34,584 nucleotides of DNA from a virus. Its lineage: Duplodnaviria > Heunggongvirae > Uroviricota > Caudoviricetes. The notes below the pieces were generated by a model. That model worked only from the letters and a program-made list of their open reading frames with translations, had not been told where the DNA came from and ran no database searches. The stretch lies in the IMG/VR virus record IMGVR_UViG_2734482772_000010. The stretch is one strand, 5' to 3'. Shown here piece by piece: positions 21,792 through 22,754 of the stretch; within the stretch, counting starts at the first letter, position 1, and each line of letters begins with the position of its first letter. The translations under genes and the position numbers were made by a program.

Positions 21792-21894
21792 ATGCGATGG
21801 GGCAAAACGCATGATTACTTTGAAAAACGACAAGGCTGATACACCAATACCTGACTGGCCAACAACCACAGATATTTCTTTGAAGGGGAAACGT

Positions 21895-22152
21895 ATGACT
21901 TCGGCTACTGCTAAATCCAGCTCACTCTGTCTGATGGGGATCACCTGCGATGAGTATGAAACTGCGGCAAAAATTTACACCCTCAGCGTCAATGCTGACA
22001 ATCTTGCAGAGGCAATAAGAGAGATGCAGGCCGCACTTGAGCAGGTGGAGAAAGCGCCACGGATGCTCCCTGAAAATAATCTGAAAGGAATACTCATTGG
22101 ACAGATAAGGCTGACCATCAGCGCCAATCCAAAAAGCAAATCGGCTTGTTAA
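21895..22152 (+). CDS. hypothetical protein (85 aa from ATG 21895; 113 aa if ATG 21811)
   Basis: ORF-track ORF 21811..22152; internal ATG at 21895 has a better-spaced AAGGGG; no family recognised. Confidence 0.35.
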   Translation: MTSATAKSSSLCLMGITCDEYETAAKIYTLSVNADNLAEAIREMQAALEQVEKAPRMLPENNLKGILIGQIRLTISANPKSKSAC

Positions 22153-22172
22153 CTACCTGCCCGTCATATTGC

Positions 22173-22754
22173 TCATTCCGTTACCCGCCTGCCTGTTGAT
22201 GCCGGAAGTGGGATCAGTATCTCCCAGAATGGATCTTCACCATTTGCATGTGTAAGACTTTCACCTGACCAGTACAGATGTGCCCGACGATATATATCCA
22301 GAATCGGACCATCACTGTTAAGCAGTCTCATATCACCACGGTGAACAGGGTTCTGATTCCTTACTTCATATATCGGCGCTGTCCGTATTCCATCATCACC
22401 ACGTTCGTTGGCCAGCAATTCCCTGAATTGTTTAACCTCACTGATTTCCTGACAGGCAAACAGCGACTGATATCGGGACGGTTTATCAGGAAAGTCGCTG
22501 CGCCGTACAAGTTCAAGGATGAGACCAATCAGTAAGGCGTTGTCCCTTTGATGGTCTTCATCGAAAAGCGCAGGATTATAGAGGTAGTTATAGCCGTGCT
22601 TCGACAACCCATCGGGATGTATTTGATTAAGAAATTCAGCCAACTCTGGCTGTTTGGGGGTGTAGTGACGCAGCGTTATCTCATGAAATGGAAACAGACT
22701 ATTTGCAGAATCGAGCGTGTAATACTTTTCCAACGGAAGGTACATCCTTTTCAA
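22173..22754 (-). CDS. hypothetical protein, 193 aa, AT-rich accessory gene
   Basis: ORF-track ORF; no signal peptide or TM segment; codon usage visibly AT-richer than flanking phage core; no family recognised. Confidence 0.5.
   Translation of the reverse strand: MKRMYLPLEKYYTLDSANSLFPFHEITLRHYTPKQPELAEFLNQIHPDGLSKHGYNYLYNPALFDEDHQRDNALLIGLILELVRRSDFPDKPSRYQSLFACQEISEVKQFRELLANERGDDGIRTAPIYEVRNQNPVHRGDMRLLNSDGPILDIYRRAHLYWSGESLTHANGEDPFWEILIPLPASTGRRVTE

Follow-up and report, generated by a model that had tools for sequence, protein, structure and literature searches.

Introduction

BC2332 from Bacillus cereus (PDB 2AUA) is a structural-genomics protein without an assigned function, so that membership in its family, DUF2441, gives a fold and no mechanism. 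DUF2441 is included in the ADP-ribosyltransferase (ART) clan of Pfam (PMC7955679), SCOP lists the BC2332-like proteins (d.166.1.6) under the ADP-ribosylation superfamily (PMC3000352), and matching of 3D templates has aligned 2aua to the active site of diphtheria toxin (PMC3024214). A DUF2441 gene of Salmonella is expressed in culture according to an RNA-seq table (PMC9867438). No functional study of DUF2441 was found in the literature searched.

Several described systems come close to the locus reported here in one respect or another. DarT-DarG and RES-Xre (ParT-ParS, MbcT-MbcA) are encoded in co-directional operons, and their antitoxins are macrodomain or Xre/COG5642 proteins. Among phage proteins, the anti-CRISPR ADP-ribosyltransferase AcrIF11 (PDB 6KYF), which is encoded in early anti-defence operons, acts on Cas8f, and Alt, ModA and ModB of T4 act on host proteins. 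BstA of Salmonella and its aba element constitute a prophage effector with self-immunity, the antidote in that case being a DNA element. Convergent R and M genes are also known from type II restriction-modification pairs. Finally, the classical lambdoid morons, such as stx and bor, are found in the interval from Q to the lysis genes or, within late regions, in antisense orientation, and their products are secreted or envelope virulence factors.

Here, we describe a prophage cassette in which a DUF2441 gene converges with a small gene of an unnamed family, termed S. Our main new result is that S and DUF2441 form a conserved convergent unit, a two-gene architecture that we have not found described, and the ART-fold protein together with S is very probably a real, conserved cargo module.

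Genomic Context of the Gene Pair

The element that hosts the cassette is a BcepMu-like transposable prophage, represented by the window (the whole stretch of DNA analyzed, 34,584 nucleotides). Two ORFs, listed at 21811-22152 (+, 113 aa) and 22173-22754 (-, 193 aa), face each other in this element, exactly at the positions that an earlier reading of the sequence had given and, as it had noted, between the start of the late arm and the Dam gene (Table 1). The holin gene, which is the first gene of the lysis/late arm, is head-to-head with S, and the minus-strand lysis arm to the left of the pair also contains an SLT transglycosylase endolysin gene and an Rz-like gene. On the other side, Dam is followed by the lipoprotein and repressor genes, beyond which the plus-strand early arm carries Ner-like, IclR-like, DUF3102 and DDE transposase genes. 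Arms for early and late genes that point away from a repressor/accessory region between them represent the BcepMu-type layout, as opposed to the collinear arms of Mu.

Table 1. Positions of the cassette genes, their neighbors and the associated non-coding features in the window.
Feature	Position	Strand	Remarks
Holin_2-3 holin	21368-21718 (ORF to 21751)	-	PF13272, E 1.3e-40; phrog_1528
Left copy of ~100-bp duplication	21774-21880		Upstream of S; hairpin decayed, fold z -1.8
In-frame 5' extension behind the "113-aa" ORF	21811-21894	+	Outside the gene; within left repeat copy
Gene S (S1 type), 85 aa, unnamed family	21895-22152	+	28 homologues; dN/dS 0.20-0.26
Tail-to-tail spacer between both stop codons, 20 bp	22153-22172		
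DUF2441/BC2332-like ART-fold protein, 190 aa	22173-22745	-	Mechanical ORF reaches TTG 22754
Divergent DUF2441/Dam intergenic region, 237 bp	22746-22982		Presumed site of DUF2441's own promoter
Right copy of ~100-bp duplication	22791-22897		Between DUF2441 and Dam
G+C-rich hairpin in right repeat copy	22850-22877	-	dG -38.2 kcal/mol, z -5.7, 0/200 shuffles as stable
Dam, D12-class N6-adenine methyltransferase	22983-23747	+	PF02086, E 2.9e-29; PADLOC MTase_II, E 3e-112
Lipoprotein gene	23792-24337	-	Right of Dam
HTH repressor gene	24361-24867	-	Right of lipoprotein gene

Homology with related prophages is lost at about 21790 and returns at about 22823-22839, and the holin-Dam slot between these points is filled differently from one relative to the next. 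It is empty in L003, holds genes for 247-aa and 71-aa proteins in L002 and for a 141-aa "ABC ATPase" and a 164-aa protein in L004, and contains DUF2441 with a P-loop-like 98-aa ORF in Salmonella (L011-13); a diverged S and DUF2441 pair occupies it in L001, KP12, L005 and L021. The sequence-only reading had taken the 193-aa protein for horizontally acquired cargo; the variability among close relatives bears this out for both genes, which are variable cargo and not part of the phage core, and a structural or lysis homologue at the same position in all of them is not what the distribution shows.

The limits of the insertion can be seen in the DNA itself. The 17-mer TAAACAGCGTTAATAGT is found at 21774-21790 and again at 22791-22807, within an imperfect direct repeat whose unit corresponds to the middle of the holin-Dam intergenic region; in a three-way alignment with the empty site, this segment occurs once in L003 and twice in the window. 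The two genes form a mobile cassette that has entered the region between holin and Dam, and imperfectly duplicated copies of about 100 bp of that region mark its borders. The hairpin of the right repeat copy, which is followed by a U-rich run on the minus strand and is kept in the empty-site relative L003, resembles an intrinsic terminator and lies upstream of DUF2441.

Base composition is less specific than had been thought. The cassette is indeed AT-richer than the phage core, as the same reading had observed for the larger gene, with G+C of 0.477 for the S gene and 0.466 for the DUF2441 gene against 0.568 for the late arm, and with GC3 of 0.44-0.50 for the pair against 0.61-0.65. The low G+C is not particular to the pair, because the entire 21.6-25.8 kb regulatory/accessory region is AT-richer, including the lipoprotein (0.396) and repressor (0.412) genes.

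Across complete E. coli genomes, the prophage region is matched in 636 of 5426 (12%) and the cassette in 36, about 33 of these with the DUF2441 gene in the matched part and a nucleotide identity not exceeding 69%; DUF2441 is thus carried by about 33 of the 636 related prophage regions. None of the 5426 genomes matches the window's cassette at a coverage of 80% or more. Proteins 96-98% identical to the window's DUF2441 occur in Pantoea, Intestinirhabdus and Pseudocitrobacter (four loci, from a scan of contigs with this single protein).

The DUF2441 Protein

The larger gene most likely starts at ATG 22745, giving 190 aa, because its closest homologue, cluster representative P0001 (99% identity), has that length. 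For the 193-aa translation, the sequence-only reading could assign no family, a view that has to be abandoned: the protein matches Pfam DUF2441 (PF10386) over residues 74-164 with 33.9 bits, the gathering cut-off being 25, and phrog_5663 with an E-value of 3e-56. All 38 aligned homologues match the DUF2441 domain, and a profile built from these 38 retrieves 2AUA from the PDB with an E-value of 3.9e-14. AF2, run on an alignment, yields a confident model (pLDDT 91.5), and the split beta-sheet of the ART core fold is present. The large protein is therefore DUF2441/BC2332-like and lies within the ART fold superfamily, sharing family and fold with BC2332 at 19-20% identity. It has neither a signal peptide nor a TM segment, as had been stated before, and looks like a cytoplasmic enzyme.

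The gene is under purifying selection (dN/dS 0.12-0.22), and conservation is concentrated on a small set of residues. Over 183 aligned sequences, R84, R94, Y161 and W162 are conserved in 100%, E81 and E178 in 99%, G54 in 98%, S93 in 96%, and H53 and F99 in 93%; S97 is near-invariant as well. This set of invariant polar and aromatic residues is enzyme-like and argues for an active site. The residues that are candidates for the ART motifs follow the canonical order and spacing, together with the invariant R84 and R94, the residues being placed by conservation and the strands by the model. H53-G54 after strand 1, S97 and F99 on strand 2, and E178 where the C-terminal hairpin begins would then occupy the ART motif positions.

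Likeness to ART proteins beyond 2aua is weak. Comparisons of the DUF2441 profile by hhalign with pertussis S1 and diphtheria toxin A gave probabilities below 1%, with the short "IYEV" strand alone aligned, and are uninformative; searches of Pfam at E ≤10 with all 38 homologues gave no cross-hits to other families of the ART clan. Among PADLOC-DB v2 models (5027 models, E ≤1), no family was matched by either protein of the pair. The family itself is large, comprising 3083 representatives at 50% identity, and among the best 150 of these almost all are stand-alone proteins of about 165-220 aa. One DUF2441 protein is fused to a CHAT protease, which suggests that DUF2441 serves as an effector domain. 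We infer that DUF2441 is most likely an NAD+-using ADP-ribosylating enzyme with a macromolecule as its target.

The Small Gene S

The small gene had been given two possible lengths, 85 and 113 aa, of which the shorter is the one that stands. Its start codon is ATG 21895, corresponding to M29 of the 113-aa ORF and preceded by the ribosome-binding site GAAGGGGA. Exactly 85 aa are found in 20 of 28 homologues and 64-91 aa in 26 of them, the 5' extension is missing from almost all, and a TGA stop codon interrupts the upstream frame in L005, a relative from Proteus; the 85-aa form is therefore the conserved S. Homologues are hosted by Yersinia, Proteus, Enterobacter, E. coli, Morganella, Citrobacter and Symbiopectobacterium, and the gene is under purifying selection (dN/dS 0.20-0.26).

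For this protein, the earlier statement that no family can be assigned still holds after searches of Pfam, NCBIfam, PADLOC and the PDB, none of which returned a match. Members of the S family searched against Pfam at E ≤10 gave scattered and inconsistent sub-threshold hits only (DUF7307, DUF2730), the PDB profile search gave chance-level hits alone, and no signature of a DNA-binding protein, a macrodomain or any other antitoxin appeared in the Pfam, NCBIfam and PDB searches. A subset of the family matches phrog_10826. A strand-helix-strand core (KIYTLSV / NLAEAIREMQAALEQVE / IRLTIS) is predicted by a single-sequence AF2 model of the 113-aa ORF, which has low confidence (pLDDT 36) and is unusable as a structure. 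We also considered whether the 85-aa protein might be related, in degenerate form, to the P-loop-like small proteins found in the same slot of relatives, an idea to which BLASTP gives no support.

Conservation of the Convergent Pair

HMMs of S were made from two alignments, A4 for S1 (the window's protein and lambdoid versions of 66-77 aa) and A5 for S2, and were searched against all ORFs of 80 IMG/VR loci gathered with the DUF2441 profile. The A4 HMM detects S beside DUF2441 in both lambdoid and BcepMu-like phages. The two subfamilies align with an hhalign probability of 42%, which is no more than suggestive of kinship.

S accompanies 41 of the 56 distinct viral DUF2441 genes, and in all 41 it lies downstream on the opposite strand, i.e., convergent. 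The 3' ends of the two genes are within -107 to +20 bp of each other in 39 of these pairs, and in L089, one of the two exceptions, an IS separates them. The spacer of the window is identical in length in L005 and L027-L029, and ranges from -107 to +15 bp in other clades. S was found in 10 of 18 DUF2441 clusters (70% identity), and searching from the side of S, DUF2441 is carried by 34 of 35 lambdoid-type S loci. The pairwise identities of the two proteins are correlated, with a Spearman coefficient of 0.79 over 337 pairs. Linkage and tail-to-tail geometry hold from 98% down to about 30-35% DUF2441 identity, for both S subfamilies and in two phage architectures unrelated to each other, within regions of very high gene flux.

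Each gene also occurs without the other. DUF2441 lacks S in 15 of the 56 viral genes, and also in L011-13, which are three independent Salmonella assemblies. The window-like S1 subfamily is mostly solo, with 10 of 13 viral loci devoid of DUF2441, in the order holin, then Dam and S in tandem, facing a lipoprotein or Gly-zipper protein gene and the repressor on the opposite strand; solo S is also present in Citrobacter, Enterobacter and E. coli genomes. The genes that face solo S, encoding a 312-aa lipoprotein and a 198-aa Gly-zipper protein, were considered as cryptic DUF2441 relatives and proved to be unrelated cargo of the repressor operon.

Gene Order and Inferred Expression

The position of DUF2441 relative to its neighbors recurs across unrelated phages. 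In three lambdoid clades, the Q antiterminator gene is followed by S, then by DUF2441 in the opposite orientation, and then by holin, so that the late transcript reads S in the sense direction and DUF2441, alone among the genes, in antisense. One Streptococcus prophage and a further temperate element have DUF2441 inside an early operon, as its only inverted gene, and Gordonia phages carry it between tail genes and integrase. In the BcepMu-like L041, the repressor, lipoprotein and DUF2441 genes follow one another on one strand, with a gap of 35 bp, and DUF2441 of E. coli 503025 (L022) is similarly in line behind the repressor operon; compared with both, the window has Dam inserted antisense between the lipoprotein gene and DUF2441. 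With crude ORF calls, 45 of 54 loci have the downstream neighbor of DUF2441 on the other strand, and in 33 of 54 this applies to both neighbors. Because DUF2441 is inverted in lytic operons and is found behind the repressor operon, its positions appear typical of prophage-expressed genes, and it would be an autonomously expressed "moron" made in the lysogen. S, by comparison of the same loci, is always on or beside the lysis/late unit.

Signals for transcription in the window are few. The 20-bp spacer has no stable or terminator-like structure on either strand (fold z +0.75 and -0.03). A single sigma-70-like match, at 22989-22962 on the minus strand (9 of 12), was found in the DUF2441/Dam region; the number of such sites does not exceed the shuffle expectation, and no convincing promoter was located within the window. 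That a duplicated holin promoter drives DUF2441 was an idea that we dropped, because the best -10-like element ahead of holin lies across the edge of the repeat and has no second copy, and because the promoter scan was not above chance.

Proposed Function and Alternatives

These observations lead us to propose, as the most economical reading and with a probability of roughly 0.4, that a lysogen-made ART effector and a lytic-phase antagonist together provide prophage exclusion with self-immunity. DUF2441 would be made in the lysogen and would ADP-ribosylate a macromolecule using NAD+, and this effector would harm lytic development, such that superinfecting phages are excluded. S would be made during lytic growth, from the Q-dependent late transcript in lambdoid phages and head-to-head with holin in the window, and would antagonize DUF2441 at the protein level. 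Convergent, overlapping transcription might render the expression of the two genes mutually exclusive, so that, when the resident phage goes lytic, S would switch DUF2441 off. In phages that carry S alone behind Dam, S might serve as a counter-measure. That DUF2441-S is a widespread and unrecognized prophage immunity module, with S as its dedicated inhibitor and orphan S as a new counter-defence family, is an extension that we offer only tentatively and regard as rather doubtful.

The logic of this proposal is the same as that of BstA and aba, namely a lysogen effector with a linked antidote, except that the antidote here would be a protein. In convergent restriction-modification pairs, likewise, the gene order serves to order or exclude the harmful and the protective partner, as it may for DUF2441 and S. 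Both likenesses are analogies at the level of mechanism, with no relationship of sequence or fold. With stx and bor, DUF2441 shares the Q-holin site, a presumed transcription unit of its own, lower G+C and patchy distribution, but not the secreted or envelope nature of their products, as it has no signal peptide or TM segment.

An unlikely alternative is that DUF2441 serves counter-defence or host take-over, in the manner of AcrIF11 or the T4 enzymes, by ADP-ribosylating a host immune or housekeeping protein, with S as a modulator or an unrelated neighbor. The match to AcrIF11 extends over only 75 residues with 12% identity and reflects no sequence relationship, and no aca-type regulator adjoins DUF2441. 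Unlike AcrIF11, with its place in early anti-defence operons, DUF2441 has the position and orientation typical of lysogeny-expressed morons, being mostly antisense to its lytic operon and located after the repressor in L041, which is the opposite of what would be expected for a factor needed immediately on infection. This alternative also leaves the tightly linked, oppositely expressed S without a role.

It is similarly improbable, in our estimation, that the two genes have no functional link, DUF2441 being a binding or scaffold protein with an ART-like fold that may lack catalysis, or some other enzyme, and S an independent gene, with both traveling as one recombination cassette. The solo occurrence of S after Dam in 10 of 13 close loci, the 15 of 56 viral DUF2441 genes without S and the unrelated P-loop-like ORF that is the partner in L011 would all be accommodated by such a view, as would the weakness of ART matches beyond 2aua. 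However, mere co-travel does not readily account for linkage and exact tail-to-tail geometry that persist from 98% to about 30-35% DUF2441 identity, and the invariant Arg, Glu, Tyr and Trp residues of the 183-sequence alignment speak for an active site.

A classical toxin-antitoxin system, in which DUF2441 would be a growth-arresting ART toxin, S a constantly present antitoxin and the outcome a stabilized prophage, fits the pair poorly, and we consider it quite improbable. The genes are convergent and never form an operon (41/41), in contrast to DarT-DarG and RES-Xre, and co-expression from one autoregulated promoter is thus precluded. DUF2441 is kept without S in several genomes (L011-13, and 15 of 56 viral genes), S has none of the domains of those antitoxins or any other antitoxin signature, each gene of the pair also occurs solo, and PADLOC models match neither.

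Finally, an accessory role in lysis timing or lysogeny, with the module regulating holin or late expression, e.g., by transcriptional interference, and with the proteins secondary, would draw on its place beside the holin gene in lambdoid and BcepMu-like phages and on convergent transcription with no terminator between the genes, but it is very improbable given purifying selection on both proteins, DUF2441 homologues located away from lysis genes in Gordonia, Streptococcus and other phages, and the many relatives in which the slot is empty.

Conclusions and Perspectives

DUF2441 is a large family, with a structure solved in 2005 and an ART-fold assignment, and yet it has no known function. The present analysis finds it repeatedly as prophage cargo, in at least four temperate-phage lineages that are unrelated to one another, at positions characteristic of genes expressed in lysogeny. 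In phages of enterobacteria, its gene is joined tail-to-tail to that of a small, co-evolving protein, which is also encountered solo. The pair is a candidate immunity or counter-immunity module; a role in defence or anti-defence is compatible with the genomic logic, and we put it forward as a reasoned hypothesis. Even if exclusion with self-immunity should fail as a model, the cassette marks a recombination hotspot of BcepMu-like prophages, a group with matches in 12% of the complete E. coli genomes.

If the model is true, DUF2441 and S would represent ADP-ribosylation-based prophage immunity with a protein antidote, together with a new class of candidate anti-defence proteins, and would provide a first function for a family that comprises more than 3000 clusters at 50% identity. 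It would also mean that the regulatory logic of such a module is encoded by convergent gene order rather than by an operon.

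Lipoprotein and repressor unit

In the window, the lipoprotein gene and the repressor gene upstream of it are apparently on one transcript, and the lipoprotein is a plausible candidate for a superinfection-exclusion factor. It shares 64% identity with its homologue in L041 (IMG/VR UViG_2571042289_000005), a contig in which repressor and lipoprotein share a strand with DUF2441, which comes directly after them across a 35-bp gap (L041:3996-5812), and S is convergent, and a similar in-line order is seen in E. coli 503025 (L022). Because both loci lack a Dam gene between the lipoprotein/repressor unit and DUF2441, Dam in the window looks, from this comparison of gene orders, like an antisense insertion into a repressor-lipoprotein-DUF2441 unit. 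A 312-aa lipoprotein of the S-only relatives (L017 and L023) has N- and C-terminal parts in common with that of the window.

Of the two copies of the duplicated intergenic segment, the one nearer Dam contains the putative insulator hairpin. L003, the relative with an empty site, has kept this hairpin; it may block leftward read-through into the lysis genes and, in the window, also into DUF2441.

Coordinates of features in the window and, where a locus is named, in other loci
Feature	Coordinates	Strand	Remarks
Hairpin	22850-22877	-	very stable: dG -38.2 kcal/mol, z -5.7; U-rich run after it when read on the - strand
Decayed hairpin copy	~21815-21880		window
Lipoprotein gene	23792-24337	-	downstream of repressor; phrog_10002 match
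Repressor gene	24361-24867	-	
Two tandem DUF2441 paralogues	L103:801-1454 and 1758-2372		single viral contig
Locus of a distant DUF2441 followed by a 126-aa ORF	L009:5762-6142		Pseudomonas chlororaphis; S absent
IS (DDE_Tnp_1 transposase)	L089:5475-6683		exactly between DUF2441 and S
Holin-proximal slot filler	L011:5627-5923		98 aa
Holin-proximal slot filler	L004:2050-2475		141 aa
Holin-proximal slot filler	L002:2005-2748		247 aa
HSDR_N protein (type I restriction domain)	L011:2797-3963		388 aa; between repressor and Dam

Other cargo of the island

The three alternative slot proteins have their first 74 residues in common, including a Walker-A-like GPxGSGKS motif, and one of them is annotated as 'ABC transporter ATPase'; for the shortest, size rules out a complete NTPase. 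The HSDR_N protein is likely to be further defence-type cargo of the same accessory island. It occurs in the Salmonella BcepMu-like prophages L011-13.

Architecture and spread of the cassette

The 3' ends of S and DUF2441 are more than 100 bp apart in only two of the 41 pairs, one being L089, where the distance is due to the intervening IS. S is not recognisable in the clade of L103. In Pseudomonas chlororaphis, a convergent 126-aa Gly/Ala-rich membrane ORF follows DUF2441, which, given the nearby DUF4238 and DUF4224 genes, is probably carried by another mobile element. The representative search also returned a 572-aa fusion protein (P0127) made up of a CHAT (caspase-like) protease domain and, at the C-terminal end, a DUF2441 domain, a layout typical of conflict-system effectors.

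DUF2441 proteins 96-98% identical to that of the window are found in Pantoea stewartii ATCC 8199, Intestinirhabdus alba, and Pseudocitrobacter cyperus (L155-L157), and the IMG/VR contig UViG_2687453315_000007 is 98% identical to the window cassette across both genes. These near-identical sequences indicate that the S-DUF2441 cassette is moving among genera of Enterobacterales.
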